Origin: Lytechinus pictus
Taxonomy: Eukaryota
Length of the DNA stretch: 64,000 nt
Reading direction: 5' to 3'
NCBI RefSeq assembly: GCF_037042905.1
Contig: NC_087250.1
Span: forward strand, 26,476,001-26,540,000
The notes below the pieces were generated by a model. It saw only the letters and a program-made list of their open reading frames with translations, was not told the origin of the DNA and did no database searches. Both the position numbers and the translations under genes were made by a program. This document shows positions 19,076-41,496 of this stretch, piece by piece; within the stretch, counting starts at the first letter, position 1, and the number at the start of each line of letters is the position of its first letter.

Positions 19076-19108
<33 letters not shown>

Positions 19109-19112
19109 TTAT

Positions 19113-19210
<98 letters not shown>

Positions 19211-19220: not shown

Positions 19221-19874
19221 TGTTGTTGCACTGCTAAAACACTGGTGTTACATCCGGTATATCACAAAAAACCAGGCATGTGTTGAAAGAACGGCAGATA
19301 ATAATCCAACCTATATTGTCTTAACACTGACATGTGTTGCTGAAATGCATATCCTGGTGTTACCCTAACGCCAGTCCGGTGTTGTTTCAACACCTGTAAT
19401 GTGTTTCCCGATGTACATATCGAGCTCGTATTAAATTAACACCAATGTTTTTTTGCAGTATGCCCATTGTGACTAATGTTGACATTATTCCTGCTGATTT
19501 AATCATAAAAAAATGATTGATAACAATTATAAAAGTTTGCAAACCATCGTCCTCAAAATACTCTGATACTTGCATTATTCCTTTTATTGTAATGATTTGT
19601 TTTCAATCTATCTCTCTCTCTCTCTCTCTCTCTTTCTTGGACTTACTTGTAATTATGTTATGACAATGATTAGGCTTATAATATTCATTTTACACGTACT
19701 AATATGATTTATTTTGTTATGGATATGGGATTAATTTATACAAACAGTTATTTTATTATTTGACCCCTTCGACATATATTTTTAACTGTAGAAATAAAAT
19801 TGAATTGAATAATCTTTCAAATAAGGTAATATCAATATTATCAATTTTCTTTGTAGATATAGAAGGGCGGGAAG

Positions 19875-20015
19875 ATGGCAAGTACTTTTAAGCTAACGCA
19901 GATGCAACTTTACAAAGTAGCAGAGCAGATCAACCCAGACGACTGGCTGAGCCTTGGGATTCGTCTTGGTTTCGTGTATAGTCAAATCCTGCACTGGAAA
20001 GAAGAATATAAAGGG
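19875..20015 (+). CDS. Gene A exon 1: N-terminal half of a death domain (MASTFKLTQMQLYKVAEQINPDDWLSLGIRLGFVYSQILHWKEEYKG)
   Basis: Acceptor ttctttgtag just upstream, ATG at 19875, donor GT at 20016 (phase 0). The pattern L..VA..I...DW..LG..LG....QI is typical of death-domain helices 1-3. Confidence 0.8.
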
Positions 20016-20029
20016 GTATTACATGCTTG

Positions 20030-20863
20030 GCCACCGTCTTACAGAGAGTTACGATTGATCCAATCAATATCAACTGTATTAAAATTCATCCATACCATAA
20101 TTTCTTCTAAAGGAAATTTACACAATATCCTAAAGAGAATCACAGTGAATCTGCAAGAAAATGATGAATATATGATTATCCCGGGGGGGGGGGGCGCTTC
20201 CATCGATGAGTGCGTACCATGCGCGACCATGGGCTCTCGAAAAGCACCCTAAACACGTATTTTCATTTTTTTGAAAATGCACCCCTTAACAAGTATTGGC
20301 GTGTGAAACCCTACCCTTAACAAGTATTGGAAACAAAACGATACTCTTGGCAAGGTCCCTGAATTGACCCCCTAAACAAGAACAGCGAAATTTTTCGGAC
20401 GTCGGTTTTACCTTCACCTACATCATTGGGTCTAGTACAGCCCCACCTCCCTCATCTCGCCCAAATCGTACTCCAAACACGTAGTGTTGACTCTTTGGGC
20501 AAAAATACATCCTTTATAAAACATTTTAGTATTGATGTTTTACACCCTCGCAAATTTGACCCTAAACACATAGCTTTCCTAGCGACAATATATACCCTTT
20601 TTTCATTAGTTTAGTGTTTTTGACACCCTTATAACGTTACGTACGTAACGTGCCCTATCTTGAAAAAGACAATCTTTTTTACGTGTTTTTTTTTGGTCGC
20701 GCATGGTATTCACTCGTCAATGTAAGTGCCCCCCCCCCCCCCCCCGGATGAATATACATCATATGTAGAAAATATTTTGGAAAAAAATGCATTTTAGATG
20801 TTGACATTGCTGGCAGTACATAGTTGTGATTGATCATTCGAAACTCTTTGTAAGACGGGACCC
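20030..20863. mobile_element. MITE (CCGTCTTAC...GTAAGACGG) interrupted by a second TIR element at 20180-20747
   Basis: The outer family also occurs uninterrupted at ~48840-49124. The inner element has CCGGGG...GAGTGCGTACCATGCGCGACCA TIRs. Confidence 0.75.
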
Positions 20864-21366
20864 TGATAATATACCAATCCAACTATTTCTCTCTCTATCT
20901 CTTTCTTAAAATGGGCGTGGCCTCTTGCAGCACTGTGCAATAAACCGTATAAACAATGCTTTGTATAGACTGTTATGTCAGATATCGAAAACAAATCATG
21001 TTCACACGAGATTTCGCAAGGAATTTTTGTCTGAAATAGGGTCATAATTTGTATTCAATTCAATTACCTTGACTGTGAAGATATCATTTCCTATTACTAG
21101 TAGTATTTAATGTCGAAATCATCATCACGAATGTTCTCATTTATATTGTGCATTGTCTTGATAATATGAAGTTAATGATAGTGTAGAAGGTTTCACGGTA
21201 CACCATGTATCTTTCTTGGCCGATTTTTTGTCCTGGAAAGGACCACCCAAACTCGACGTTTCAACAAGTGTATTCCTGTTTCCCCCAAAGACGACAAAAT
21301 AACACGTCGAAACGTCGAGTTTTGGTGGTTCTTTTCAGGATCAACAATTGCCCAAGAAAGATACAT

Positions 21367-21680
21367 GGGCCCGTATTCTGAAGTCGGGTTTAACTTAAAC
21401 TCGGGTTTAAAGTTGTGGTTTAAGTATGGATAGCCAATTGTTACATAAATCACTAACAGTAGAGATATCATACTTCAGCTCATTTGGCTCTCAAACCATT
21501 CATTATTGTTTAGGAAGTATGAAAAGATTATTGTCTTCACCATCGATGAATCAGGAAAGAGCACAGTAAACATAAGAAACATACAACTTGATAAAAAAAT
21601 GTTGATACTTTTGGCTTCCCATACTTAAACCACAACTTTAAACCACAGTTTAAGTTAAACCCGACTTCAGTATACGGGCC
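21367..21680. mobile_element. MITE with GGCCCGTATTCTGAAGTCGGGTTTAAC TIRs
   Basis: Inverted termini of about 65 bp. Confidence 0.85.
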
Positions 21681-22988
21681 GTGGTGTTCCGTAAAACCTA
21701 CGCTATTCTTCTTCACCATGGAAACCTTCAGGAGTTACATGAAGTAAATGAATTATCATTATAATCAAAAGGAAGAGTGACAGCCTTATCCACATTTTTA
21801 TACCCAACCTTGCTGAATCCAAGGGGAACTTTACCCTGACGAAAAGTTCGTTGTATGAATAGCCCTAAAATAATTAAATAGCTGTTGAAGATTTGAGGAA
21901 AATTCGCCAAAGGTTAAATAAAAATATGTTATTTTTGAATTTGTTACGTTATATACATGCACGAGAAGCTGGCCCATCGGTTATGCAATAAAACATGCGT
22001 AATTTTTTTTTCTTTTAGACTACTTCCATGATCGGATGTAAGCTAATTTGTTTATCAATATGCTGAAGGTACAATAAAAAATTATTAAATTTTTACCATA
22101 TGAAACGAATGAAAGCTGCTCGCATATGACGTAAAAAAAAACCCTTAAGTTTTATTATTTGATTGATTTACCTCAAACCTTCACCAATACGTCTTTGAAT
22201 GAATGTTTTCTGTTATTTTTGCAATAAACTTTTTGTCAGGGTGACCTTTAAAGTGGTAAATGCAACATTTAGAAAAAAAGGTTTGTCACTCCGATCTTTT
22301 AACTGTTAATTTAATATATCAATGTTCAGTGTGTACTATACAGCGTTCCCTTGTATAATTTGTTCAATACAGAATATAAAACCATGCTAATGTTCCTGGC
22401 CGACCTCCAATCCCCACCCCCTCCCCAACTCTGACTGTCTATCTCTCTTTTTCTTTTTGTCAAGTTGGGATCCTATGAAAGAGAAGCCACTTTCGTCAAT
22501 GCCCAATTAAGCCAACACCTTCTATTGACTGCTTCTACTGAAGTGGAAGGAGGGGGGGGGGGTTCTCCCTCTGTCTTTTGGGGCAATTAGGGAATATTCG
22601 CTCACCTACGTGCGAATGATTCAAGAACAGAGTAAATCCTTTAAATGCCCGTGCAATTACAAAAAGCTGGGGGTCTTTGTCGAAAATTAGTAAATCGGAA
22701 CAGCAGTTTCGTGTTAAGTGTCAGAGCTGACGAAAATTTGCAAATATGTAGTACGTTTTGAATAGAGGTCTGAACTGCTGTGTTGATTCACCAATTTTTG
22801 ACAAAGACTTCTATGTTGTTCTTCGTCATGACTGGCATTCGACATCTGTAAGCCGCTAAGACAAAATTCATTGTCAGCTTCCCTCTCAAAAAGGGCCAAT
22901 ATAGGACTCCCTTCTATCAACAACGCCTATCATCAATGATGACATTTATTCAATTTCTCACTCCCACACCCATAATAAAACTCGAAAG

Positions 22989-23133
22989 GATATCAAGAAT
23001 GGGATTTTCAATATGCTGCTCACCTGGCTTGACATGTATCCCAACTATACCCAGCCGGACGCAAGGAAGTTCTTGATAGACCAATTCAAAGAAATGGAAC
23101 GGATGGATCTGGCGCACTTGCTTACCAAAACAG
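22989..23133 (+). CDS. Gene A exon 2: C-terminal half of death domain 1 (DIKNGIFNMLLTWLDMYPNYTQPDARKFLIDQFKEMERMDLAHLLTKT)
   Basis: AG at 22987-88, donor GTAAGA at 23134. Joins exon 1 in frame. ML..W and L...F..MER.DLA are death-domain helix 4-6 signatures. Not present in the supplied ORF track. Confidence 0.8.
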
Positions 23134-24108
23134 GTAAGATAAATGTTCACCCTGATTAAAGAGATGTTTTAATAATACGCATAAACATAAATAATACTAT
23201 TATGATGGCATAAGAAAAATCCATTAGATAATGAGAAAGAGGAATTAGCACATATCTGAATTTGTGATGACATCCTTAAATTCTTGTTTTATAAGGTTCA
23301 CGATGACTGGACTGATTTGTTTCGGATATAAAATGGCGTTTCTGATGACTTTATATCTCACATAAATAAAATCATTCTCATTTCTTAAGTAAATGACATG
23401 AAAAACGAATGACCGATTTGAATGAAGATAACTCTGTATAAAACACATTGCTCAAATATTTTTTTTCACAATTTTTCTTCAAATTTTAGAAGTCGGTTTC
23501 GTACCACCCCATAAAGTTGCAGTCATTGGTTCATCGAGACAATTCGAGTACGAGGTCAGGACTTATCAGCAAGAAAAGGGTACGTTTTCCAACTTGGTTT
23601 TGGTTTAATGGGGGGGGGGCACTCATGTATATAATGTCAGTTTGTGTACACTCTAGAAAAATATTGGGTAAAAGTGATCCATAGTGGTAATTTTGTGTCC
23701 AACCAACATTCAGCATTTCTTTTGGGCATTTTTATTTATCCAGTGTGATGAAAATTTTGCCCATTCTAAAGTAATTGCTGCTTATTTTTAACCTTACCGG
23801 ACAATACGTTTCCCGCAATGGGTAAAATACTGTCCCAAATTGGTTGGACAAATAAATACCCTCGTGGTGGTAATTTTTTTACAGTGTATATGCGGCCCCA
23901 AGCCCCCTTTTACACGCATCTCCCGTTTTCACTAACCAACTGGTTCGAAGACCCCAGTTTATATCACATAAGGAAGTACCAGTTCTTAGTGTTGCCAACA
24001 GTGTGACATCGCTGCCTGATCGCAGTCCACGTCGTTCGTGCTATGGTACTAAATGGTACAATACAAAATTTGACATTAAACATCTCTCATGAACACTTTC
24101 TTTCCCAG

Positions 24109-24498
24109 AACTTTCATTCAGGGTGTCCATGCATTCGAGCGAGGGACAGGTACCGCTCTCTCTGATCTTAGACTGCCTGACCGAACCTAACGAGTTTGCC
24201 ATCAGGCTGTGTACATGCATCCATATACTCGGACTAAGACTCATCCGGATGCAACTACCCGACGATGGAACCGGAAGTAGTATGAAGGTCACGGTCGCTG
24301 CGATTGATGAAGATGTCGTTCTTGAGTTGCAGAAGAGGGTGAAGTCATTACCGAATCACTTTGCAGATGACCTGAAGGATGTCATTTGCAAACATATTGC
24401 CGATGGTATGGAGAGGTCAACAATTTCTCTGAAAACCTGGTTCTCTGAGAAGGACGAGAAGGACATTGGACAGATCATCGAAGACTTTCGAAAAGAAG
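24109..24498 (+). CDS. Gene A exon 3: ~130-aa alpha/beta domain, possibly TRADD-N-like
   Basis: Acceptor tttcccag, donor GTATGC, phase 1-1, open frame matching ORF 24123-24527. Confidence 0.75.
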
Positions 24499-24713
24499 GT
24501 ATGCGAAAATTCCAAACCAGAACGTAATTTTGTACTATTTTCCCCTGCATGAGTATGGGGTTGTATTGCATAGTATTGAAAAACATCATCTTCTACCCCC
24601 CCCCCCCCCCACTCCCCTGCAATTTTCCTTTTTTGGGAAAATGGGGGTACGAACTGAAGCATGTATTATCCAACACTCACCATACTTTCTGACTGCCCTG
24701 CCATTGTAGTCTG

Positions 24714-27700
24714 GTAGGGAGGTAGGGTTCCCATGCACCCGAATGATATATTTTTTTAACCTACATTTTTGTAATCCTTAAGATGTTTATTGAATGAATT
24801 TTGATGTTCCCAAAACGAAATATTGTCCCATGGGGTTCAAATTCAAGATGGCGTCCAAAATGGCCGCCATATTCATGGGATTTGGATTTTCGTACATACA
24901 TTCCGACACAAACATTCATTTGCCACAGAATTAGTGTCATATGAAAGATAAATAAATTTTCTACAAGTTGATACTATTCATGGGTGATGAAATGGTAATT
25001 CGGCTGAGATTTTAGTAAGAAAAGTACAATTTTGAGAATTTTTTCCAAAGAATTGAAAATTTGTGAAATACATGATTTACCATAAATCTAAGGAAAATAA
25101 AGAAATCGTCTCGAAAATTTGTAGAAAACTTTCCTAATATACAATTATTAAGTGGACGAAATTCCAAATTGATATCATTATTAGTCACAAACTTATTATG
25201 TCTCAAACTTGAAAATTCAATTTTCAAAAATTTAGCTTTTTTTACTGCATATCGGAGACTTGAATATATTAATGTATATTGTCACATTTTCAACCCAGAA
25301 AATGGAAATAGGCCTTAATAAAATGCGAAATTATCTATTATTTTGTAGGTAGAATTTACTACAATCCCTTTATTCTTCGATTTCAAGTCGGTTGATATAG
25401 TTTTTAAAAGAATTAAGACTTTCGGCCAAAATTTGTGTTTTTGGTTAAAAAAAATTGCACATGCACTGTTATTGATCAGATTTATTATGAATATCAGTAA
25501 TAAATGCACAATCTCAACATTCGATATGAAAGATGATGTATCAACGAGAATATTGGCAGGCTTCATGCCACCATGAGTATCTTCATTTGCTTCAGATAGA
25601 AGGAAAATATGCTGAATGTATTAAGCGATTTTGCGCTAAAGTGAGGCCAAAAAGCAACGTCGGTGTGGCAGTCACACCTATGAAAACGATTGCAAAGTGA
25701 TGAATGGTATGCCATTTAAATAATACAATAGCTCTGATCAGCCTTTCGCATCGTTTGTGTTGGTATGACTAACTGGTATGGAATTTGCTCTCCACAGTAA
25801 AAATCATTGGGGGTAATTCTGTCGTCAGTCAAAAAGTGATCATAGTTAAAAACCATAACGTAGTTCAGATGACCGAAGATCTGACATGGTATGTGATGGT
25901 CGTTTACCAAAACAAAAGAAATCACGATCAAAATCAAAACGTCGAAAGAACTAACCAATCAGCGAAATGGACACAGCACACGATACTATCACAGATCCTG
26001 ATCATTATCAGTCTAAAGGCAGTCTATCCAACTTTGCATAATTTGACATAATACATACCAATGGACCAAACACAGTTGTAAATTCAGAAGGCACAGTAGC
26101 ATTTGCTAACATTTACATATGCCCACAGAGCCGGTCAACATAAGCTCTACCTAAGAGTTGACTTAAGTGCAAGTACTAACACTATCATAGTCCGTACGCC
26201 AAGGAAATATAAAGTTCAAAGTGGGAATCATTAGTGAAACAAACACCAGTAAAACTTAAAGCTTATGGTGAGATTCCAATTAAATGTAAAGGTACACTAA
26301 TTTGACATAAAATGTTACAGTCCAAAATGGTCAACATAGACATTCTATGTACCAGATGTCAAGGTTTCAGCTATCCTTGGGTTGTTAGGTTGCACTGACC
26401 TTGGAATTATCACAATGTACTCAATGTACAATTATGACACACCAACACCTAACCCTAAACCTGAACAAATACTTATCACAAGTGATGAGGATCTCGAACA
26501 AGCATTTCCAGAGCAGTTCGATGCTATTGGTAGTTTCAAAGGAAAAAACGATGTTTCATGTCAAGGATATCGCTAAACCTACTATAGACGCACCACGCAA
26601 GTGCAGCACATTAATTGAAGGACAAGATCAACGTGGAGGAACACGACAAGAATCGGTACTTGTTCATGGAGACGGCAAAGCAAGAAGGCTCAGTGTTCAA
26701 CAGCTCCAAGTGCACAATCAAGAAAGAAGCTATCAACTTCTTTGGCTCCAAGTGCACTAGATCAGATATCTACTCAGATCCTAGCAAGGTAGAAGCCAAC
26801 ACATTACCCAAGTACTATTACCCAAGGACGAAGAGGATGATGTTCAGAAAGGCCTAATATTGTTCAAATACCTAGCAGCATATATTCCTAATTTGTGGGA
26901 AAAGTCAGCACCACTTCGATAACTTCTCCACAAGGAAGTACCGTTCATCTGGGACGATGATCATGAACATTCCTTGAACAGCCTGAAATATGCAGTATCA
27001 TCAGGTGCATGCCTATAGTTCTATGACCCAGAGAGAGAGGCCTGTCGAGATGGATACATCAATGAAAGATCTAGGAGCATGTCTTGCTTCAGGATGGTTA
27101 CCTGCTGCGTTTGCATCCAAAGTCTTTCCACTGCACAGTCCAACTACTCAAACATAGAGGGAAATCTTAGTCCTAATGTTTGGTATCAAACGCTTCTATA
27201 ATATCAGTTCGAGAAGGAATTCACAGTCATAATCAATCACAGACCACTGGAAATTATATGGAAAAAATTCTTACAAGTGCACTGCCGCATCTACAGCGAT
27301 CGCTTTTAATCAAAGTCCAAGGAAACAGGTTTCAAGTCAATTACCGACCTGGAAACAACATGATTCTTTCCGATTCATTGAGTTGACTTTGTAATCCCAA
27401 GGAAGCATGCGATGTACCGTTAGGTGTCAGAGTTAAATCCATCTGCTCTTAGGAAAAAGATTTGCATATGCGATCGACTTATTACTCTTCGGAAAACACA
27501 AGAGGACAGAACTTCAGAGAGGAACAGCTAATGATCCAATACCTAGATCATTATGGCAGATAGTTACTAAGAGTTGGCCTGAAACAATCCAAGAGTTATT
27601 GAAATCCCTTATGCAGTATTGGTCGTATAGAGATAACATCGGATTATCACATGGAATACTCTTCACGGGAATTCAAGTCATCGTACCGAAGTCACTGAGG

Positions 27701-30700
27701 AATGATATCATTGGACAGCTTCACCTAGGACACATGGGAAAGTACCAGCTGACTTACTCGTGAGACAGTGTTCTTGTCAAACATCAACGAGGACATCGAC
27801 CAGTTGATAAAGCAGAGTGAAACATGCCAGAAACATCAAGCAAGGCAGCAGAAAAAAAGAAGTGGAATATCAAGCACATTACTTCTTCTCCACACTATCC
27901 AAGATCAAACGGATTAGCTCAGAGGATGGGTCGTACAGTCAAGAATCTGTTGACAAAATGTTCTCAGACTGGCCAAGACAGTCAACTAGCAATGATGAAC
28001 CTGAGAGCAACACCAGTCGAAAGTTACTTTAGATCACCAGCAGAAATGTTATTTGGTTGACCCATCAGAACCACATTATCAAGTCACTATTTCTCGAGAG
28101 ATTCTACTGCCACTGATTTTCTCTTGAATAGGCAAGGCAAGGTGAAGGAAGTGCATTATCGACATGCAAGTTCTGATCTACCACCTCTGCATGTAGGACA
28201 GCCAGTGAGAGTTATACATCCAAGATAACACACTTGGATACCAGCTAAAGCATCCAAAGTCTGTGAGGAACCCAGGTCTTACGAAGTATCAAAGCCAAAC
28301 GGAGGAATCTTGAGAAGGAACGTATCACACGTGAGGGAAATTCAATCCACCATCCCCACTCCAAAGCAGGAATCGAAATTAGCGGTCGCCCGGGTGACGT
28401 TGGCAACCAAAACTGCCATCATGGTTGCCAGGATGGCAACCAAGAAAATTCCATGTTTTTTTTCTCAAAGAGAATAAAATTCTCTTGAATTTTGCAGTAA
28501 GCAAAATTGCTTTTCCAGTCCAAAGTTTACAACTTCTGGATCAGGAATATATCTTTCAAGATCCCATTGGCACAAAGTTTTTGCTAAAAAAGATCGCCCA
28601 AATGTAGCACATGAGCCTGCCAATGACTTCTAAGATTGACTGTCTGTTTGTCAAAGTCCTCCCTAAGAACCATAAAGCTTGCATTTTGACATGATATAAG
28701 TTAATTGTTGGAAGTTGTGAAATGCAATTTACAGGAGGCCTTTTCCGTGGTACTGATTCGTCACCACATTTTCTACTTTTGAAAATATTAAATAGATAAA
28801 TAACACAGCCATACACATCTCAATGTTCCAAAAATGCCTTCCCCTTCTTTACATTGGTCAACAGAAAGAGGTTTTTGTCATTTTTGGCACTTTAATGTAT
28901 CAGATTTGTTTGATTTAAATTGTAAGAATAAAGATAACCCACTCAATTAATTTCTCATACTAGGAATACCCTCAAAATATTTGTAAGAGTTCTTTTTGTC
29001 AGAATCCAAGATGGCCGTCAAAGTGGCGGCCAAGGGACAATATTCAAGTTTTCAGAACATCAAAATAAATTCATTTAGTATACGACTCCAGGATTGAAAA
29101 GGTGAAGGTTAGAAAAACTTATCAATGTGGTGAAAAGGGGTGGTAAAGATAATGACAATATAGTAATTTAAGTCTGTAAAATGCAGTAAAAAAATCAATT
29201 TCTTAATAATTGTATATTAGGAAAGTTTTCTAGAAAGTTTCAAGGCAATTCCTTTATTTTTCTTAGATATATGGTAAATCAAGTATATTGCAAATTTTCA
29301 TTTTTGGGGAAAACAATTTCAAAATGCACTTTTCTTATTAAGATCAGCCGAATTACCTTTTCATCACCTATAATTAATACCAACTTGTAGAAAATTTATT
29401 CATATTTCATATGACACTAATTTTGTGTTCGAAGATAGACCTGATTTAGGAATACAGGCCATAGATTCAAAATACAGATAAAGTGGGGGTAGCTTTGACA
29501 TGTTCCTTTCAGTTATGTATTGATATGTCATGTCAGAACTTCATCTCTATTACCTGCAGTGCTAGTGTGTCTTATAAATGTTTCCAAAAGACTTCAAAAA
29601 ATAAATTTCTTTATGATGTAACAGAAACACCCTTTTTCCCTTTACATCCTTCTGAATCAGATACATTTCTATTACCATGCACATTCTATACTGTACATTA
29701 CGGTGTGTTAGTCATACCAACACAATCGATGCGAAAGGCTGATCAGAGCTATTGTATTATTTGAATGGCATACCATTCATCACTTTGCAATCGTTTTCAT
29801 AGGTGTGATTGCCACACCGACGTTGCTTTTTGGCCTCACTTTAGCGCAAAATCGCTTAATACATTCAGCATATTTTCCTTCTATCTGAAGCAAATGAAGA
29901 TACTCATGGTGGCATGAAGCCTGCCAATATTCTCGTTGATACATCATCTTTCATATCGAATGTTGAGATTGTGCATTTATTACTGATATTCATAATAAAT
30001 CTGATCAATAACAGTGTATGTGCAATTTTTTTTACCAAAAACATACAAATTTTGGCCAAAAGTCTTAATTCTTTTAAAAACTATATCAACCGACTTGAAA
30101 TCGAAGAATAAAGGGATTGTAGTAAATTCTACCTACAAAATAATAGATAATTTCGCATTTTATTAAGGCCTATTTCCATTTTCTGGGTTTAAAATGTGAC
30201 AATATACATTAATATATCCAAGTCTCCGATATGCAGTAAAAAAAAAGCTAAATTTCTGAAAATTGAATTTTCAAGTTTGAGACATAATAAGTTTGTGACT
30301 AAAAACGACATCGATTTGGAATTTCGTCCACTTAATAATTGTATATTAGGAAAGTTTTCTACAAGTTTTCGAGGCGATTTCTTTATTTTCTTCAGATTTA
30401 TGGTAAATCATGTATTTCGCAATTTTTTAATTTTGGGGAAAAAAATCTCAAAATTGCACTTTTCTTACTAAAATCTCAGCCGAATTACCATTTCATCACC
30501 CATGAATAGCATCAACTTGTAGAAAATTTATTTATCTTTTATATGACACTAATTTTGTGGCAAATGAATGTTTGTACGAAAATCCAAATCCCATGAATAT
30601 GGCGGCCATTTTGGACGCCATCTTGAATTTGAACCCCATGGGACAATATTTCGATTTGGGAACATCAAAATTAATTCACTACACATCTTACGGATTACAA

Positions 30701-30760
30701 AAATGTAGGTTAAAAAAATATATCATTCGGGTGCATGGGAACCCTATCTCTCTCCCCTAC
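24714..30760. mobile_element. Foldback-type element with ~1.06-kb terminal inverted repeats, in intron 3 of gene A
   Basis: 24714-~25773 is the reverse complement of ~29707-30760; mirrored ORFs MKPANILVDT appear on both strands. No clear TSD. Confidence 0.85.
26090..28360 (+). pseudogene. Degenerate Ty3/Gypsy pol relic (protease, partial RT, RNase H, integrase)
   Basis: VDLSASTNT (protease-site remnant), FNSSKCTIKKEAINFFG, YRPGNNMILSDSLS, HLGHMG, HITSSPHYPRSNGLAQRMGRTVK, SPAEMLFG. Many stops, frameshifts and deletions; no LTRs seen. Confidence 0.9.
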
Positions 30761-30865
30761 TATTGATGCAAGGTTGTTATTTTACCCATGTCGGTGTGTT
30801 TATGTTGCCCATCACAACATAAAACCAACATAAAGGCGCCATGCAAGGTGCTCTTTGGATATTAA

Positions 30866-31446
30866 AGGGATGGTCCGGGCTGAAAATATTAATATTTAAA
30901 TAAATAGAGAAAAATTCACAAAGCAAAGTGCTGAACATTTTATCAAAATCGAACAACAAATAAAAAAATTATCAAATTTTCAAGTTTATATATGCACATC
31001 GTCATGAACATTAATTAGGTGGGCTGATGATGTCATATCCCCACTTTCCTTTTGCTTATGTTATTACGTGAAATCAACATTAATTCAATTTTTCATACAT
31101 GTGTAAATGATATGTATCCAATATGATGAAATAAATTGCGGCAATAAATAACTAATGCACTTAATCAGTTTTCAATCTAATTGTGTTAGTTCTTGGTATA
31201 AAAAAATTGAAGAAACCTAATTTAATAATAGAATACCAAAGAACAAGTGGGGATAAAACATCATCAGCCCACCTAATGAATATTCATGAGGACATGCCTA
31301 GAACTGTTTCACCGGAACAATGCAAATCTTTATAATTCAATAAGTTTGTTATTTATTTTCCGATTTTGATCAAATTTTCAGCTTCTTGCTTTGTGAATTA
31401 TACTCTATTTATTGAGATATGAATATCTCCAACCTGGGCCATCCCT
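30866..31446. mobile_element. Kolobok-like MITE
   Basis: TTAA-AGGGATGGTCC...GGGCCATCCCT-TTAA, with the same internal sequence. Confidence 0.8.
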
Positions 31447-32149
31447 TTAATGATAGTCATTTGATTGTCAATAAGTTATACATTGAGAATTTGGTTGTCT
31501 GGAAGAAAACGATTTGGATTTTCTGGGACACCTTTTTATTTCTTTGACGATTCAACAAGATTGTGCAGTGTGGACATTTCATACATGAGTGAATCTCCAA
31601 CCTAGTGTCTCCTTATCATGAAAAGCACTGAAATCCCTCTACGTCCAATAAAGTACTTGATTATGTTATTAATGGTCAATTTGAGAGACTAGTTAATTCG
31701 AAGTCTTCGGATATATCTTTTAGGTTCAATACAACAATATAAATATATTTATGGCGACTTATATTGGCTGGAGTAACAGCTTACATCTACAGGAATCACA
31801 TTTAAGATTTTAATGATTTTCTTTAAAGGTATTTGGGCCCTGTAATTATGATTGCAATTCGTCGTTAGAATTATCGAAACTTTCACACGGAAAATTTGTA
31901 CCGTAATTTGAACGAAACTTAACTGGAATTCACCTCCGGAGTAGAATTTGAATTCGTGATTGTGATAAGCGTTCGTGATTTTAGTTTGATTTCACACGTT
32001 CTAAAATTCGTCATTTGCCTTATTTTTCACTGGAATCATTTAAATTACGATGTTTTTTTTTACCGTGTGAGAAGGCGGTTAATGGTTTAATGGCCCTAAG
32101 TTTCATCTGAGATTTCTTGAAATTATGATCCCGATCTGATGACCATCAA

Positions 32150-32435
32150 CTTCGTAGCTCACAAGATACACTCGCGATGCAGGTATCCACAAACAAGACG
32201 AAAGTAACACGAGGAGATTCTAGGAGCTTTTTTCTATATCGCACCACAACTATGGAACAAACTTCCCTTGACATTATAAATTCAACAACTTTACAAAATT
32301 TCAAATTAAAGTTTAAAAAACCCTTACATATTCCAACAGTATTGTACAGCATCTGGGAAGCTCTTCAGCGCAATATAGAGTAATATAGAAATATGTTTTG
32401 CGCTATAAAAATGCATATTATAATTTTTATTTTTA
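32150..32435 (+). mobile_element. 3' fragment of an L2/CR1-group LINE
   Basis: Frameshifted RSFF...APQLWNKLP.DIINSTTLQNFK C-terminus, followed by a GCGCTATAAAAATGC...ATT tail. Confidence 0.65.
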
Positions 32436-32596
32436 TTTACACTTTGTCGCACCATATGGTATAAGGCCGGGGCATTAGGTTGAGGCGCTATTGGCACTTT
32501 GGTATGGCGCCACCTCTAACAGACGACCACGACCCACACATGTCACCTGGCGGATTGCTTATATGAATATTCATTAACTGTTTTTTCTTCTTGCAG

Positions 32597-32707
32597 TAAA
32601 CACAAGACCATCTGATGCTAAGCCTTTGCGTGTCAATGACCTAGAACTGGTGAGACTCGCAAAAAAACTAGATGCCTCGTTGGTAATGGAGCTCGGGTTA
32701 AAATTAG
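32597..32707 (+). CDS. Gene A exon 4: start of death domain 2 (VNTRPSDAKPLRVNDLELVRLAKKLDASLVMELGLKLG)
   Basis: Acceptor ttcttcttgcag, donor GTGAGT, phase 1-1. L..LA..L......LG..LG motif. Confidence 0.8.
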
Positions 32708-32819
32708 GTGAGTTTGGAAACATTCACCGTGTTTAGTGGTCATTATGTCATTGAATTTATGATGGTGGTGGGGGAGGAGATAAAGCTGGTAATGATCATG
32801 GAGCTATAGCTCCATGGTA

Positions 32820-33080
32820 ATAATGGTGGTGGTGTTGATGATGATGGTTATGATGATGGTGGGGTGGTGGTGATTGTGATGATGATGATGATGACTATGA
32901 TAATGATGCTGGTAGAAATGATGATTATAGAGATGATACTGGTGGTGGTGGTGATGATGATGATAATGATGATGATGATGATGGTGATGATGGTGATCAT
33001 GATGATGATGGTGATGATGATGATGTTGATGATGATGATGATGATGATGGTGGTGGTGATGATGATGATGATGATGGTTG
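32820..33080. repeat. (GAT/GGT)n microsatellite
   Basis: Direct inspection. Confidence 0.95.
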
Positions 33081-33271
33081 ATTATCTTGCCTCCGTCTGG
33101 AACAAATATCTATCTAGTCTGGGAACCATACAACTTTCAAAAATAAAACAAAGAACAATGATTACAGACCGATGATCCAACGTGCCGATGATTCAAAACG
33201 AATTCCTTATTTGAGTACGTATGTGAGATGTCTTTGACCTGAATTGATTAGTTTTATTTTATGTTTGTCAG

Positions 33272-33472
33272 GCATGTCGGACGCCGAGATCAATAACCTT
33301 CGAGCCATGTCAAGCAGATCAAAGTTCGAGCATATACTGTTTAGTTGGAAATCGAAGCACAGTCCGTGTATGAACGACCTTCCTGATTTGGCTAAGATTT
33401 TGGAGTCGCTTGGTGCCAGTCGTCTCGCTTCGAAACTAAAGAAAGGGGAGCTGAGGGAAAACGAGAAAGAGG
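33272..33472 (+). CDS. Gene A exon 5: rest of death domain 2 (MSDAEINNL...ILFSWKSK...LAKILESLGASRLASKL)
   Basis: Acceptor tgtttgtcag, donor GTAAGA, phase 1-1, death-domain motifs. Confidence 0.8.
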
Positions 33473-33816
33473 GTAAGATATTTTTATGTTTAAGTTCCTA
33501 TTTTATATTGTAGATTTGCCCTTCAAACACAGTCATGGTGACAGTCTGCAATTTGCCAGTCTCTCAGTTCTAGCTATGAATATGTATATTCAAAAGTAAA
33601 CGAATGTTTACATTTCTTCATCAGGAGGATTCGCGAAACGAAAATGTGTTACATTTTGTACTCCGATATCATGAAATATTATAAATCGCAAATTGTCCCT
33701 TTTCACTTATCATTTCGTTGCCTGCTAAACCGATCTTCCTGTAATAGTCTATTTCTCATGAAATATACGAAAACTCTGCGAAATCAGTTTTGTCTTTATA
33801 TGTTTTATTTCTGAAG

Positions 33817-34185
33817 AACAAAGAAGAACGTACCTTCAGCGGGTGTCTGCTCACTCTTCAATGATTGGCGCCATGAAGTCCCTTAGATTAAATCGTCCAA
33901 GTATCAATCAAGTCCCAGCTTCAGGTGAAGCTTCTGGTGCGGGAAACTCACAGTGCCACAAATACGTGAACTACCCACTTGAGGACACCCAAGAAAATAA
34001 ATTTGGACAACACACGTACGTTAACACTACAGGTTTGCAGGATGAAGGGCGCCCTCCCCAAGGGCAAGACACTGCTGATTCTGGCACCAACGAACCCGAC
34101 TACGAAAGCATCATCTTTCGCACTGAAGATGCGAAGCCAACGGAGAGACAACAGGCTAATAAAGCAGCTGAAGCGAATCCTGATT
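33817..34185 (+). CDS. Gene A exon 6: low-complexity linker with tyrosine motifs (YVNY, YVNT, YESI)
   Basis: Acceptor tttctgaag, donor GTAAGT, phase 1-1, in frame with ORF 33843. Confidence 0.75.
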
Positions 34186-34709
34186 GTAAGTCTTATCTGT
34201 GTGTTGGTCGGGTAATATTGAAATACTGTTCTACAAAGCAAATAAGAATCAATAAAGGAAGATGTATTTACGTCCACTTGTCCCTCAAGAAGAAAAAAAA
34301 AGAAGAAGGGAAGATACGTGTAGAAAGATAGAGAGAGAGAAAGCCATATTTTTTTTTTTTTGGGTGGCTGGATGGGTTGGATACGAAGGCACACTTTATC
34401 GACTTGTACCGAAAACGGTGGGTAGAATCTCGTTGATGCAATAATCATCGACCTAAATGTGCGCATTGGCAGTAAAAGTGCAATGTTAGGATTTGGTTAA
34501 CTGAGTACCGATCTAAATTTTAATATGGTTACTATCACACAGTGTCAATTTGTCAGTCCTAAACATGTTGGACGCTTTCGTCAAACGATGACCAAGTACG
34601 ATATTCTTGACTTGATTCGACCTTTCAGCTTTCCTGTTTTGATGCAAAGAACGAATTCATCTTTTAGTATATGATATAGACATATATTTATGTTTGTTTG
34701 TTTATCTAG

Positions 34710-34793
34710 ACGAAATGATTAAGGATGCAAACGGAGGAGAGACGCAAACTGATCAAGATGAAAATTATCATACTTATGTACAACTAAGAGAAC
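34710..34793 (+). CDS. Gene A exon 7 (YEMIKDANGGETQTDQDENYHTYVQLRE)
   Basis: Acceptor tttatctag, donor GTGAGT, phase 1-1. Splicing creates PDYEMI, which echoes PDYESI in exon 6. Confidence 0.7.
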
Positions 34794-35106
34794 GTGAGTA
34801 ATTTATTCAGACAGAAGACTTTCTTGAGCTTTCTTTAAATGTGGATTATAATTTGCTGATACCGACAACAAAATATAAATACTTAATGTATGTTGCGTTA
34901 TTAGTGCTCAAGCTTACTCTGTCCCATCGACCATTCATTAATTCATTGGCAGGCATCAAACGTTCTTTGCCAGAATATCAATTGCACCGTACGAGCATTT
35001 AATTCTTCCGTTTGACAGTTTAAATAAATTGCCGTGCGTAGAACGGATAGAAATAGCATCAGTAAAACAAATTCAAACAACCATTATGTTAAATTTCATT
35101 TTATAG

Positions 35107-35172
35107 CCGGCATTCGGAAAGGCGGTGAAATGAGAACCTCTCATAAGCGACTGGGAACATCTGCGATACCAG
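35107..35172 (+). CDS. Gene A exon 8 (PGIRKGGEMRTSHKRLGTSAIP)
   Basis: Acceptor attttatag, donor GTAGAT, 66 nt, phase 1-1, open frame. Short exon, so less certain. Confidence 0.5.
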
Positions 35173-35539
35173 GTAGATTGAGAATTCATAATTCTTACTT
35201 TTCCTCTTAAGCACCATTTTACGAAAATATTCAAAATTATCTTTATTGATATTTCTCCGTTCTTTGTTTCTTTCGTTCTTCCTTTTATCTTCCTTTTCTT
35301 CTACTTTTTCGTCTTCTTCTTTTTTTTTCTTCTTTTTCTTCTTCGTCTTCTTCTTTTTTATTCTTCTTCGTCTTCTCCTTTTTTTCTTCTTTTTCCTCCT
35401 TCTCCCTCTCTTTCTTCCTCATTTTCTTCTTTTCTGTCCTCTTCTTCGTTTACTTCTCCTTTCTCCTCATTTCAAACTTTATTTTTTTCTTACATAGAAA
35501 GATTTTATTCAAAATCAAACACGAAAGCAATTCAATTTA

Positions 35540-35990
35540 CAGAAAAATCATGAAGCGAACATGTGTACAATAACTGTACATTCGTACTATTATCTAATGA
35601 TAAAACAAAATTATGTTATTGACTGAGAACCCTTTCAATTTCACAATAGCGTTTTTATACGTTCTTAAAAGAGCTAAAACACCACCGATCACCTTTACAA
35701 CGTGTCGGAAAAAAAATTTAGCGTAAAGAATATAACGGTTTACAGTAGAGTATTGAGCGCTAGGGCAAACGAACAAAAATAAATTCTTATTTAAATACAC
35801 GTCATTGTTCAAAAAAGAGGTTTGGGAGTTTTTAATAAGATGTTGAGTTACAGGGCAGTCCCAAAACAGATGTGAAATACTTTCAACAGAGAAAGAATTT
35901 TGAATTTCATATTTCAAACTAAACACACAGATCTCACTACAGCTTTTAACCCATAAGAAGGCGCTTCCTTGATAAAATTGAATTTTGATT
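35540..35990 (-). mobile_element. 3' fragment of an L1/Tx1-like LINE ORF2
   Basis: ESISHLFWDCPVTQ is a CCHC zinc-knuckle remnant typical of L1/Tx1 ORF2. Confidence 0.7.
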
Positions 35991-36139
35991 TTAACGATAG
36001 TTATTTAAACAGTGAGCAAAGATGTGATCCAGTGACTATCTAAACCCATTTGTAAAGCGGTTACACGTAAAGTTATTTATTTCAAATATTTAGAAAGAAT
36101 TCAGCTTGATTTTTTCCACATACTTTTTATCCTTTCTAG

Positions 36140-36301
36140 TTATTGACAGCATGGACTTTTCCATTCTTGAACCAATGTGGAACAAGCTAGCTGTTTTCGG
36201 CGTTACTATCAATGACACGATGCACATAGCAGGCTTGGTGAAGCTAGCAAACGCTCTCGATCGTATAAGTGAACATGACATTGCGGATACCGTATGGATA
36301 T
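36140..36301 (+). CDS. Gene A exon 9: partial (C-terminal) death-domain-like segment (...GLVKLANALDRISEHDIADTVWI)
   Basis: Acceptor cctttctag, donor GTGAGT, phase 1-1. L..AL..I...DIA resembles death-domain helices 5-6. Confidence 0.7.
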
Positions 36302-37404
36302 GTGAGTTTGTTTGTGCAGAGTAAGAATGTCGTTTGAATTTGTGAACCTGACAATGGTTTTTAAGCGGTTTAACCCTTTCTAGGCCGGGGTATTTCGGGA
36401 GTTCATTTGGCCGGGGGGCTCCCAGCCCCCCCCCCCCCCCCTTGAGATCTCGGTCGCCAAGGACTGCGCGATCGCGCCGAAAATTGGCACGCTAGTCATG
36501 CTAGTTGTCTAGGACATAATCTACAAAATTGTATACTAAATTGTTTTATGCAAATTGCTATTAAGTGATCATGCTCATTTATGCGTAATTAGTATGCGAA
36601 ATCATACTGTTTCCTCCAATTCCATATGAAAGCCCAAAATGTTATAAATTTTGGTTGAGAGACTCTTTGTGGTGTTTTTAGCAAGTGTACATGAAAAAAA
36701 TAAGTGATATCAGATCAATTTCTTATGCATACAAAGTGAATAGAGTTGAGAGCGTTCTATATAATTTTAGACAACTTGTTTTATTTTATACCCAGTGTTA
36801 CAATATGAGCTCGTTTTCTTATATTGCTATTTACCAACTCTACTCCAGTTCATCATCGAATCATAATCGGGCAATTGTTCCTCAATGGCCTTTTGTTTTA
36901 CCATGTATATTATGCACAATTTAATACAACTCGTTCATCGTTCGCCGTCTCCTCGCAGGTTGACCACTATAGTTTCGTATCCATCTTGTAGCCGTAGTCT
37001 GTTCTACAGACTTTACAAAGTACAGTACATACCCGTCACATCCAGTCGTTGTATCACATTGCCTTGGTGGAACATACTGCATTAAAAAGATACTCTCATG
37101 ATGTGGGAATACACTTAATTAGTCAATTATTATCACGATTAAGTAATGCTACATACATTGAATAATTATTCATTTATTTATCTAACTATTTTTTTTCCCC
37201 GCCCTTTTATTTTCAGAAAAAAATCTAGCTCCATTTTCCTACCCTTTTATTTTCATAAAGAATTCTAGCTCCAATCGCTCCAAAATGTTGATGAATCTAC
37301 CTTCCAAGCAGTTCCCAATTTACATTTTGTCTCTGGTAATCGTACGGTATCCGGTGGGGGTCGTATCATGTTAATCGTACGATCTCCCGAGTCCTGAGGG
37401 TGCT

Positions 37405-37632
37405 ATTATTATTATTATTATTATTTTTTTTTTTTAATTATTTTTTTTTTTAAACAAGTGCACACCTAGTTACCAATAATGCATAAAGCATTTCCATTTA
37501 TTTGAAAGCAGGATAAAAGAGCATTGTTGATTAAATGCCTTGCTCACGGGCATAGGCGCCGCGGCCGGGGATCGAACCCCGGACTTTCCATGTAAAGCCA
37601 GGCGCCTTAGACCACTCGGCCACGGCACCTCC
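37405..37632 (-). mobile_element. tRNA-derived SINE, second family
   Basis: Minus strand GGAGGTGCCGTGGCCGAGTGGTCTAAGGCG...GGTTCGATCCCC...GAGCAAGGCATTTA, with an A/AAT-rich tail. Confidence 0.8.
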
Positions 37633-37924
37633 GCTATACGACAACCCTACGATTACCAACGGATAAATGATGATTGCAGGGTCAACGGTAATGTTTAGTG
37701 CGAAGTTATATGAAGGCTTTGTGTGGCAATAGTTGTGTGACAATGAATGAAGTCGAGGTTAACCAAACCTTCGATGCTAATGCACTATTTCCATTTCTGC
37801 CAAGACATGGTATCGATCTTTTGGTCTAATGTTTCCAAATCAATTTTAATAAGTACAAAATAAAACTAATGCACGGAACCGGAATATAATCCATTATTTT
37901 TCATTTTTCCTCCTTTTCATCCAG

Positions 37925-38562
37925 CGCTGATAAGTGAGAACATGAAAAACGAATACCTGCATAAATTTGATACCGGAAGTATAAATGTTGTTCCACGGGT
38001 CATCACGAATAGACAAGACTTTGACATGGGACAATGGACAACTCTTGAAGAGGTCATTAATCGCACAAAGGCTCTCGAGTATCCCAGTCGCATTTTCATC
38101 GAGGCCAACGAACCACTTGACCGGCAAATGGTGGCGGAGAAGCTCGGCTACGATTGGGCCATAGAGAAGGATCCGAAGAGTCCGTTGGGGAACGTTGATT
38201 TGCTTTACGTCCTGAACGTTGCAGACATCGCTCCTGGGTCAACCGTTGGGGGCGCTGTAGTATCTCAACGCGTGTGTAAGGAATTCAAGCTGACTCAATC
38301 TCGAATTGAAGATTATTTCAAGAGCACCATGACAGAATATGTCATAGTCTTAAGGGGAGATGAAGATGATTTTCGGAAACTATTATCAGTCTCCCCATCT
38401 GCTGAGCGTAAATCTGGATTCAGAGATCTAATCAACGGAAGCTATCTAAAGGATTGTATTGTGATAATGACAATAGGTCCCCATGCGCTTTCGGACGCTC
38501 CTAAAAGCTTTGCATATTACAAACTTCTGCAAACCCCATACTCAGCAACGTCGGATTGCTAA
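37925..38562 (+). CDS. Gene A terminal exon: degenerate, truncated NACHT-like (STAND NTPase) domain
   Basis: Long polypyrimidine acceptor ending ccag, in frame to the stop at 38562. RIFIEANEPLDRQMVAEKLGYDWA, DLLYVLNV, VIVLRGDED and LINGSYLKDCIVIMTIGP occur in NACHT motif order (Walker A region, strand 2, Walker B, sensor-1). Confidence 0.8.
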
Positions 38563-41496
38563 AGAATATATTTGGGTTTCTTCACATGCAATGTTGTCCC
38601 CATTGAAATAATTCAATATATTATAAGGTATGTGGTATCTTTACTCTTACCATGGACCTTACTATGAGTCCATGCTCTTACTGTAACGGTAGCAGAATAA
38701 TCTCAGGAGGGCTTCTGCGAGAAAATGTGACTACTTAAATAAGTTTTTATTGGCACAGTTGATAGCAATGTCATTGCGATGTTATTGTTATGCTGCCACC
38801 CCCGTGTGTTTTGTTTTAAATTTATTTATTCTATGATATAGAAATGTAGTATATTGGTCGTTGGAAAGCGGAGGAATTGATCCCTTCTCTAACATCAAAA
38901 CCTTTCCAATTTATTAAATGAAATCCACAAAATGCTGCCAAAGGTATAAATAATCCGTGTAATTATGTTCCAATGTATTCGAAATAATCGTTTTCTTAGA
39001 TGCACGGTCCACCGTTCACCAAAGTGAATCAAGTAAAACCGTTAGTTGTATCATTATGGTAATGATAATTCTATAGAAAATTGTGCAGAGAAGGATACAA
39101 TAATTGCTTTACTGATGATTATAATAACATTGCTAATAATAATAAGAAGAATTATAATTATAGGAAATGTTGAAATAAATTAGACACCTAAATTCTTGCC
39201 CATTATTTCATTATTTTTATTGTATTTTTTCCTTGCATCAATTGGTAAATGTTTATATTAGTTTTGATCTGTTTATATTTTTATGTATATATACCTTTAT
39301 GCTAATGTGGCTTTGTTTGATCGTAAAAACCCGATATTCATAAATCATTATTTTGTGTCTGAAATCTCATTCATCTAGCAGGGTTTTTTTTCCTTCATTT
39401 TTTTTAGAGGCATCATGACAATCATTATAGTTATTATGTATAGTTCAATATTTTCTTTGATGGGTTTATGCTTGCCATGCTTAATGGAAACTAAACAATA
39501 TGAATATGATCTGGGGCCCGTATAACACAAAGCTTAGCAATGATCGCATAACATTTTTCTACGATTGGTTCCATTGAATACAATGTACAATCAGCCGTGA
39601 AAATCGAAAGTACAATTAATCGCTAACCTTCGTGTTAAGGGATCCTGCGAGTGTTTTCTCAAAAAATTAAGTATGACTTAAAATCGCACTTAAATGCCGA
39701 CGCGTATATGATATGCAACACGCAATCTTATTGCAAGCAACTAAGCATTTAAGTGCGACTCTGATGCATACTTAAATCTTTGTGAAACACCCCCTGTTCA
39801 TATACATGTATGTAGGTAGATGATGCATTGAACTATTTGTAAGTTTATACGAACGACGTTACTAACGACCTTTTGAACATTAACACCGATCGTAATGTGG
39901 GTGGCGTTTCATGAAAGGACCTGTCAGACGTTTTATCCGAGAATGGACTGTTTTATCCGACAGTTTATGGTAACACTGCATCTCAGCCAATCATAATCAA
40001 GGAAAGTTGTCAGACCAGGGGCCCTTTGCAGAATGAGTTAAGATCAAACGCAACTATGTCATCAAACCAGTTCTAACTAATACATGAAAGTTTAAACAAG
40101 TCTTCTCACTAAAGCATGGTACATTTAGTATCATTCAGGAATGAAAGTTGTTTTGTGCCTTTGACGTTAATATCAAATTATTTTTATACATTTATATGAA
40201 GTAGTATGTATGCTGCATAATGCTTATTAAAATCTTTGTAGTATTTTCATTTTCATATGATATCTCGATTTTTATTGGTTTGTATATTGGTATTTTGTCT
40301 CTCTATCTACCTTTCCCTCCTCGACTCCCCCTCCCTCTCTTCCCCTTTTCTGCCCATCCCCCCCCCCCCCTCAGACTATCGCTATTGCTCTCTTTCTCTA
40401 TACACAATTGCCCGTTAATATAAACACCTATGAATGATAACTATGTTATAAGTAATGAATAGTCTGGAGAGTTACAAGAACATCATTCTAATATAGGGTT
40501 AGTATGGCGCCGTATCCATCTCCCGCTTAAGGGTATGTCAAGATGTAATTAAAGATGCTACGAAAACTATGCATGGGGAGGTGGAACTAAAGTGGTATGG
40601 GGTGCAGATCTTGGGGAGGTGGAGCTAACGGTTGGAAAAAAAATCAGCTGTTGAAAGCAGAAAAAGGGGTACAAAATTCGTTTTGCTTGCCAGTGTTGGT
40701 ATTCCTATGCCTCAGCGGGAGGGTGCATGCGAGCCCATTGCACTCCCCCGCCCGCCAGCCAACGCCCTTGAAAAATAATAAATGGGAACCTTATTTGTCT
40801 CTTTGGGCATGGATTTACTTTATTACATTCCTTTTATTTTTCTTTAGAGCTAGTGCATTGTCAATGCATTGGGATCATTTGATGTTCTTCATTTTGATAA
40901 AAACTTATCAGGTGACTTCATTGGAAATATCTTGCCGTCAATTCATCAAATATGTTAAACATATATCCAGATCCTGTCATGAAGCTTTGCATCCCATTTA
41001 GTGCAATTTGACGAATGCCCGCTTTCGATTCCGGCAATCTTCCCTCGCAAATGGGCTAGAACAGTAGAACGAGACTTCATCAGTCACTCCCGTTCTCGAT
41101 ATCATATCCTTTGTGACATCATCACGTCCATTGACGTCATAGTGCCTGTTTACGTCATAAGTGTGGAATATGATCTTGCTCAAGACGTTTAGATGAAGGC
41201 TGGGTGACCGGGGAAGTAAGAGAGCAGATTTTTTTTTTGCCACTTTCGATGACATTAAAGGGGTAGATCACCGTGATAGCAAGTTTATTTTGCTCACGTC
41301 AGAAATCCTAGAAAAGCATTATTTAACGAAGGTTTGGGGAAAAAGCATCAGAGAGTAAGAACGTTAATTATTGTTTAGTGTTTGAATTAAGTAGCGTCAA
41401 ATGTGAACCATTGCCCCCACATGCCATGCAATATCAAATCATATATCCCTATCCATTGATTGATGACGAGGTTTTTGCTCTCTTCCTCCCCCTCTG

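Follow-up and report, generated by a model that had tools for sequence, protein, structure and literature searches.

LOC129263955 of Lytechinus pictus, a candidate death-fold adaptor with a truncated NACHT remnant

Sea urchins possess very large repertoires of NLR and death-domain proteins, the wiring of which is almost unknown. By the definition given in PMC3879445 an NLR combines a NACHT domain with leucine-rich repeats (LRRs). In urchin receptors of the Death-NACHT-LRR type, such as LOC129262971 (P0048, 1899 amino acids [AA]) of Lytechinus pictus, a death domain precedes the NACHT domain, the exon of which is apparently entered in phase 1 in three paralogues. The 64,000-nucleotide stretch of L. 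pictus DNA studied here (contig NC_087250.1, positions 26,476,001 to 26,540,000; hereafter the window) carries on its + strand a gene, LOC129263955, which keeps this order of domains and this phase. Its product differs from the urchin NLRs in having no Walker A, Walker B, sensor 1, winged-helix, helical or LRR parts and in possessing, in addition, an N-terminal death domain and a middle domain. It is not an NLR under the above definition. The reading to which we incline, with modest confidence, is that the protein is a cytosolic, non-enzymatic death-fold adaptor descended from a death-domain-NACHT(-LRR) immune receptor.

With TRADD and the echinoderm Death+TRADD-N proteins of Kaur et al. 2021 (PMC8195603) this protein shares an alpha/beta domain located mid-protein beside death domains, a candidate G-S turn, and its occurrence in a marine invertebrate with expanded death-fold families; among the Strongylocentrotus purpuratus rows examined in that source, in contrast, none joins TRADD-N to a NACHT remnant. 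NLRP10, an LRR-less NLRP, and the Pyrin-only and CARD-only proteins (POPs and COPs) are derivatives of receptor families whose sensing part is gone and which have been proposed to regulate assemblies of the family they come from (PMC11492288; PMC3775265). POPs and COPs are single small domains found in higher primates only (PMC3775265). LOC129263955 differs from all of these in that it retains several modules together with a dead, truncated NACHT. In NLRP10 the NACHT domain is intact. The iSTAND modules of bacterial conflict systems likewise have a STAND-type NTPase fold devoid of catalytic residues, but those are bacterial and are predicted to sense invaders, whereas the urchin gene specifies a eukaryotic NACHT cut off after sensor 1 and fused to death domains.

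Inactive STAND versions are described in PMC8195603 as having no functional precedent among those STAND systems of eukaryotes that have been examined in depth, and LOC129263955 bears on the general question of what inactive STAND/NACHT modules do. A single protein that combines death domains with motifs of the phosphotyrosine type and a dead NLR core offers a handle on how receptors are connected or restrained, and L. pictus, in which the gene is a conserved single locus, is a genetically tractable urchin.

Gene structure and transcription

The window is sea-urchin DNA, and the locus is annotated by NCBI as an "uncharacterized protein". Its last exon is 100% identical to LOC129263955 isoform X3 (P0001, 722 AA), 85% to LOC121416911 of Lytechinus variegatus and 70% to LOC100890170 of S. 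purpuratus, which one source calls "Death domain-containing protein". The gene is annotated but unnamed: a literature search found no paper with the three locus names and no use of the phrases "pseudo-NACHT", "degenerate NACHT" or "truncated NACHT", and the matches to "inactive NACHT", judged by titles and the opening lines of abstracts, concern conformations of NLRP3.

Exons were placed by tblastn of NCBI proteins together with an exhaustive search over neighbouring AG/GT sites; positions are those of the window unless labelled C6, which denotes positions in the organism's own genome. The gene comprises 11 coding exons (+ strand, 2397 nt, 798 AA) with AG/GT at every junction. The ATG is at 19875, with an in-frame stop 12 nt before it, and the TAA ends at 38562. 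The original prediction, made from the letters of the window, had start, stop and strand exactly right, and its assertion of canonical splice sites and one uninterrupted frame holds for all junctions of the 11-exon model. It had proposed ten exons, 2307 nt and 768 AA, figures which proved too small; the difference of 90 nt is the length of exon 3, which is thus the exon missing from the earlier model. Exon 3 is of phase 1-1, so that leaving it out keeps the frame, and its omission fits with the 8098-nt intron having been called intron 3. A polypyrimidine-AG (ttttctttgtag) just before 19857 suggests a non-coding 5' exon further upstream.

Exons 1–8 plus 11 give P0001 letter for letter, and exons 1–3 plus 5–11 give P0002, an older 668 AA model, with six allelic differences; exon 3 is required for both. 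Exons 3 to 10 are all of phase 1-1, and the annotated isoforms (668–798 AA) differ by the skipping of exon 4, exon 10, or exons 9 and 10. Exons 4 and 11 are each single copy in the L. pictus genome. With 100% identity to an annotated protein and a spliced RNA contig at the predicted spacing, the gene model is far beyond chance.

The RNA evidence came from a pair of contig sets and from two runs of raw, stranded RNA reads, all of the same organism and mapped onto 19700–38800. Record 1 of contig set X1 (1731 nt, + strand, no mismatches) contains exon 4 at 575–963 and exon 7 at 1277–1646, and the stretch between the two is exactly that of exons 5 and 6 (312 nt), once two exon-4 bases lying past the piece as listed and a single fortuitous match at the exon-7 acceptor are taken into account. 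The 574 nt ahead of exon 4 correspond to exons 1–3 (376 nt) plus a leader of ~199 nt, and the 85 nt past exon 7 fit exon 8 (84 nt). In record 8 of contig set X15, exon 4 is preceded by 423 nt and followed by 28 nt. Since exons 4 and 7 are united in X1 record 1, at least one transcript crosses the 8098-nt intron 4 (24499–32596), and because exons 4 and 11 are single copy, a processed copy does not account for this contig. In the raw runs the exon-bearing bins were ~2–7 reads deep in a single read orientation, the last exon bin having 4 and 6.9 reads against 0 on the other orientation, which fits low-level + strand RNA.

The original prediction had stated that it would fall if transcripts assigned the exons to two separate genes split at the 8-kb intron, and had named absence of expression as half of a further test. 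What was found is a spliced contig spanning that intron, and stranded reads besides. Its proposal that RNA confirm the junctions was borne out by the contigs for the chain of exons 4-5-6-7(-8); the read-level joints are dominated by chimeric reads.

Three G/C-rich spots (20728–20747, 24596–24617 and 36421–36441) draw RNA-seq reads by the hundred, chimeric or soft-clipped and with tails of poly-C or poly-G, and produce false joints among themselves in both raw runs; this looks like a library or mapping artefact. Within introns, at 19700–22247 and 30529–31802, the summed depth in the two contig sets is very high (up to ~50,000), which points to abundant or expressed repeat families. One piece, at 21.3–21.7 kb, is also similar to the terminus of an NLR-exon ORF from another place in the genome.

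Domain content and descent

The modules follow one another in the order death domain 1, alpha/beta domain, death domain 2, tyrosine linker, basic exon, helical exon and NACHT core. The last of these is specified by exon 11 (37925–38562), which encodes a pre-NACHT segment, the truncated pseudo-NACHT and the stop codon. A phmmer/HMMER search with the 211 AA of this exon against 1.84 billion representatives (E≤0.001) returned 30 matches, two of them the family itself; the other 28 (E 2e-8 to 1e-3) are without exception NACHT proteins aligned over the NACHT region, and all carry PF05729 above its cut-off over the matched region. Exon 11 scored 12.4 bits (E 0.14) against PF05729 (NACHT), below the cut-off of 26.7, and was absent from the 84 matches (E≤1) of a genome-wide scan with this profile.

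The loss of the catalytic motifs was read from an alignment with 14 of the 28 NACHT matches. At the Walker A position or P-loop (38104–38127), A-N-E-P-L-D-R-Q replaces G-x-x-G-x-G-K-S/T; the Walker B remnant (38341–38370) reads V-I-V-L-R-G-D-E-D-D, the first Asp having become Arg; and the sensor-1 remnant (38458–38481), I-V-I-M-T-I-G-P, has Gly in place of Arg, with the protein ending 26 residues later. The Walker A expression G....GK[ST] was found in 27 of 28 relatives, that for Walker B (hhhhD-[GAS]-x-D-E) in 25, and the sensor-1 Arg in 23–24, while not one of eight family proteins possesses any of the three. In Strongylocentrotus the P-loop position reads A-G-R-Y-E-D-R-Q; this remnant varies among the family copies and its flanks do not. 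No LRR was found in the protein by Pfam, no NLR remnants were found in the 25 kb after the stop codon, and the C-terminal parts of NLRs (winged-helix and LRR, using seven NLR exons of the same genome) show no similarity at E≤1 elsewhere in the window.

Descent from a receptor is indicated by a BLASTP comparison of the L. variegatus orthologue with the NLR P0048, in which the NACHT cores share 29% identity (E 2e-10) and death domain 2 matches the death domain preceding the P0048 NACHT (E 5e-4), the order being unchanged. These domains lie 69 residues apart in P0048 and 266 in the LOC129263955 orthologue, so that the tyrosine linker and exons 9–10 are extra relative to P0048. Candidate acceptors of three paralogous NACHT exons are of phase 1, as is that of exon 11. 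The nearest named NACHT relatives come from echinoderms, namely the brittle star Amphiura filiformis and L. pictus itself, and clusters of NLR exons lie 0.8–1 Mb away on the same chromosome. An NLR-derived protein with a pseudo-NACHT, a lost nucleotide switch and no LRR had been predicted, and each of these features was recovered. By its sequence the C-terminal domain is a NACHT homologue and not a working NACHT member, and the protein could presumably be neither an ATP-driven switch nor a ligand sensor.

The protein closes with six residues encoded at 38545–38562. The final three, S-D-C, do not differ among the full-length family proteins and the three ahead of them (S-A-T/A) hardly do, although the residues preceding this S-A-T/A-S-D-C tail are variable. 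The tail is a possible terminal binding or lipidation signal.

The first death domain is divided between the coding part of exon 1 (19875–20015), which holds the start codon and the N-terminal half and matches P0001 residues 1–47 exactly, and exon 2 (22989–23133), which holds the C-terminal half. Death domain 2 is similarly made up of exon 5 (32597–32707; N-terminal part) and exon 6 (33272–33472; C-terminal part). PF00531 (Death) recognizes two stretches at 47.7–53.9 bits (cut-off 22.6) in seven of the nine family proteins scanned. Of the remaining two, the N-terminal partial copy P0034 has one such stretch (42.6 bits) and P0040, a C-terminal fragment devoid of death domains, gives no match, as expected. 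The best Pfam Death stretch of P0001 is residues 275–350, that is, death domain 2. Taken singly, the exon 1 piece covers profile positions 1–39 (E 0.007), and exon 6 scores 24.3–24.9 bits (E 3.5e-5) and is found at 33271–33444 by the genome-wide PF00531 scan. The nearest solved sequence to death domain 1 is the death domain of PIDD (2of5 chain H, 9tuf; E 1.5e-5 to 8e-5); the likeness is confined to this domain, the Pfam scans giving no ZU5 or UPA match in the LOC129263955 family.

The two death domains had been predicted, with the proviso that an absence of death-domain profile hits would count against the proposal, and PF00531 finds both. A further, partial death domain had been assigned to exon 10 (36140–36301), whose 54 AA look helical by eye and which isoforms X2 and X3 lack, and here the outcome was less favourable. 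Exon 10 has no Pfam match at E≤10, and hhalign against ten death-domain sequences aligned its last 18 residues in a helix-5/6-like manner (P 0.004) at a probability of 8.8%. The PF00531 scan revealed at least 150 death-domain exon matches in the L. pictus genome. Two further death-domain exons lie on the - strand at C6:26575954-26576205 and C6:26615243-26615476, 36 and 75 kb past the end of the window, which places the gene in a part of the chromosome rich in death domains.

Exons 7 (33817–34185) and 8 (34710–34793) form a low-complexity linker of ~170 AA in which hydrophobic residues make up 15%, against 30% in the whole protein. Its tyrosine motifs, all on the + strand, are YVNY (33963–33974), YVNT (34017–34028) and YESI (34101–34112) in exon 7, YEMI across the exon 7/8 junction, and YVQL (34775–34786) in exon 8. 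Seven of the eight linker tyrosines are kept between L. pictus and S. purpuratus (binomial P 0.012), and each orthologue retains a pair of YVN motifs besides two or three of the form Yxx[I/L/V]; the predicted tyrosine motifs are thus present and conserved in the orthologues. The linker is followed by exon 9 (35107–35172), which specifies a basic stretch of 22 residues, is skipped in isoform X3, and has a core, S-H-K-R-x-G-T-S-x-I-P, common to most family proteins.

The middle domain (~160 AA) is specified by exon 3 (23490–23579; 30 AA), which provides its start, and exon 4 (24109–24498). It is conserved, and a crude propensity estimate gives alternating strands and helices, which agrees, if weakly, with the RRM-like beta-alpha-beta-beta-alpha-beta fold of the TRADD-N superfamily. 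The label "TRADD-N-like" had been attached to it, and every statistical test of this label was negative. The Pfam models PF09034, PF20694 and PF13820 gave no match to exon 4 at E≤10 and, scanned genome-wide, no match anywhere near the gene; a PDB profile search with the domain returned no match, TRADD included; hhalign against a TRADD-like_N ORF of the same genome gave a probability of 0.1%; and Smith-Waterman scores were no better than those of 1000 shuffles (z -0.2 to 1.0). A word-based search with a three-species profile of the domain found only the family itself, and a paralogue chain started from the TRADD-like_N ORF returned only that ORF. Among the rows listed, the table of TRADD-N proteins in PMC8195603 does not include the S. 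purpuratus orthologue.

In favour of a true TRADD-N-superfamily domain are look-alikes obtained with a language model, although scores under 0.9 serve as leads only: a TRADD cluster at 0.75 for the L. variegatus domain and 0.78 (rank 3) for that of S. purpuratus, a DEDD cluster at 0.76 for the latter, 98% of whose members have TRADD-like_N, and sponge death-domain clusters at 0.78–0.80. A G-T-G-S-S turn (24267–24281, +), in which G, G and S are invariant across the three species, lies between two strands as predicted by the same crude estimate and is a candidate for the conserved tiny residue-Ser motif which PMC8195603 describes in the beta2-beta3 turn of TRADD-N domains. The position between two death domains also agrees with that source, according to which TRADD-N is usually single, located between two globular domains and beside death-like domains. 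Echinoderms are there credited with 18–23 copies; the TRADD-N scans recovered only three loci above cut-off in the L. pictus genome, which indicates that the models are insensitive to these expansions. Weighed together, membership of the superfamily is a nearly balanced question which tips slightly to the negative. Were it so, the N-terminal half, death domain-TRADD-N-death domain, would act like TRADD or the echinoderm Death+TRADD-N proteins, with the middle domain switching partners at the junction of a constant death-fold part and a variable C-terminal NLR remnant.

The family was found in camarodont urchins only, by word-based searches, which can miss distant members. L. pictus has one locus, L. 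variegatus two that are 99% alike, and S. purpuratus two full-length loci and two partial models, P0034 (LOC115927654; 467 AA, N-terminal part) and P0040 (415 AA, C-terminal part). The first of these partial models, with its death domain-middle domain-death domain arrangement, has at its beginning the tail of a transposase of the DDE_Tnp_4 type (22.8 bits, slightly below cut-off; E 7.8e-5), an echo of the transposon associations of TRADD-N genes reported in PMC8195603.

Between L. pictus and S. purpuratus the whole protein is 60% identical. The dead NACHT core is the best-conserved part at 74%, followed by exon 3 at 67% (100% to L. variegatus), the pre-NACHT segment at 66%, the death domains and exon 4 at 58–61%, and the linker exons 7 and 8 at 43% and 36%; the gene is open in all three species. 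In a maximum-likelihood tree of 33 rows, comprising six family members and 27 of the 28 NACHT matches (P0026 left out) and rooted by midpoint only, all family members group in a single clade (100/100), the stem of which measures 3.0 changes per site; the L. pictus–S. purpuratus path is ~0.37 and the median terminal branch 0.46. Fast change on one occasion followed by slow change speaks in favour of a new role under constraint and against decay.

Proposed function and its alternatives

Taken as a whole, the domain content makes it most likely that the protein is a signalling scaffold or regulator and not an immune sensor, and the "scaffold, decoy or helper" of the original prediction was a reasonable suggestion. 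As an adaptor it might operate as follows. The two death domains would recruit it into homotypic death-domain assemblies, for example those nucleated by the death-domain NLRs of the urchin, and the middle domain would bring in a partner without a death fold, as TRADD-N does in TRADD. The linker tyrosines, once phosphorylated, could serve as kinase-dependent docking sites for SH2 proteins. The pseudo-NACHT, having no ATP switch, may persist as a fixed protein-binding surface, possibly for the cores of canonical NLRs. Skipping of the in-frame, phase-1 exons 4, 9 and 10 would yield isoforms with different sets of modules.

Several points weigh against this account. The docking of SH2 proteins is argued from consensus motifs, YxN fitting Grb2-type and YExI Src-family SH2 domains. 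The middle domain has no relative detectable by Pfam, PDB profile or hhalign outside the LOC129263955 family, which makes its partner-recruiting role a guess. Constraint is argued solely from protein identity, retained open frames and a midpoint-rooted tree; RNA depth is low in both raw runs; and the isoforms are NCBI model predictions, with contig backing for the exon chain 4-5-6-7(-8) only.

The same features have been weighed under other explanations. That the protein is a dedicated decoy or cap, whose pseudo-NACHT inserts into or caps canonical NLR oligomers or restrains them at rest, and whose main role would be negative regulation in the manner of truncated receptor-derived inhibitors elsewhere, we consider rather unlikely. 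It would suit a best-conserved part that is a diverged NLR oligomerization module, and the presence of NLR exon clusters within 0.8–1 Mb; POPs and COPs acting as competitive inhibitors (PMC3775265) and the LRR-less NLRP10, first proposed as a negative regulator (PMC11492288), provide precedents. For a decoy, however, two extra death domains, a conserved alpha/beta domain and conserved tyrosines are all superfluous, and with the nearest NLR just 29–30% identical, mimicry of a particular receptor is not evident. More speculative still is an elaboration of the adaptor reading, a "pseudo-STAND" adaptor in which a motif-less NACHT, kept for tens of millions of years, is combined with a death domain-TRADD-N-death domain unit and SH2-docking tyrosines so as to couple tyrosine-kinase signalling to death-domain/NLR assemblies, the protein acting in echinoid immunity by docking onto NLR oligomers or replacing one subunit. 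If true, this would give inactive STAND modules a first functional precedent within the immune pathways of animals.

Loss of the catalytic motifs and of all C-terminal receptor parts, low RNA depth and a P-loop remnant that differs among copies are also what one would see in a decaying relic, a broken NLR becoming a pseudogene and transcribed at a low level without function. This reading, already disfavoured, is very improbable, in that a frame of 2.4 kb in 11 exons is open in L. pictus, in both L. variegatus loci and in both full-length loci of S. purpuratus, conservation is highest in the dead domain (74%), a long stem leads to short in-clade branches, all copies share the same C-terminal residues and all splice sites are canonical. 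Scarcely credible is a division at the 8-kb intron into two genes, exons 1–4 (death domain and unknown domain) and 5–11 (death domain, linker and pseudo-NACHT). Although that intron is long and carries a retroelement between inverted repeats, and S. purpuratus has separate N-terminal (P0034) and C-terminal (P0040) partial models, the X1 contig refutes the division for at least one transcript form, X15 record 8 extends 28 nt past exon 4, and full-length models exist in all three species.

The surrounding sequence

Just upstream of the gene lies a compound trinucleotide microsatellite of ~1.5 kb (17685–19247), over which the ORFs contain long Y, L, T, V and S runs in all frames; GC skew reaches its maximum for the window, 0.56, in the bin 18001–20000. 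Inside intron 4, inverted-repeat arms of ~1.07 kb (24707–25773 and 29707–30762; 94% complementary) surround a 3.9-kb segment with broken retroelement-like ORFs at 26340–28477, one of which shows, by eye, a motif like that of integrases; for three of these ORFs no Pfam match was found at E≤0.01. Intron 5 contains a (TGA)n/(TGATGA)n array (32836–33076) and intron 9 a (TCT)n-rich array (35288–35457).

Scans of the window for tRNA genes and Rfam families found nothing. A downstream paralogue, for which weak tblastn matches at 49088–49174 and 63414–63596 were considered, was rejected, there being no death-fold Pfam match among 113 of the 114 listed + strand ORFs of 39–64 kb; the remaining one, the 408 AA frame described below, was scanned separately. 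A short frame at 49079–49216 (+) resembles the exon 2/3 junction peptide without the intron (14/29 residues, tblastn E 0.07), a likeness that may be due to chance or be a relic of a processed or ancestral copy. Elsewhere in the L. pictus genome, TRAF MATH exons were located. At 52549–53775 (+) an open frame of 408 AA combines an N-terminal part resembling a coiled coil with a beta-propeller, the nearest relatives of the latter being the NHL-repeat regions in TRIM2, TRIM3, TRIM71 and Thin, as well as a WD40 protein (best E 1.5e-12). The frame probably represents the final exon of a neighbouring gene of TRIM-NHL-like type.

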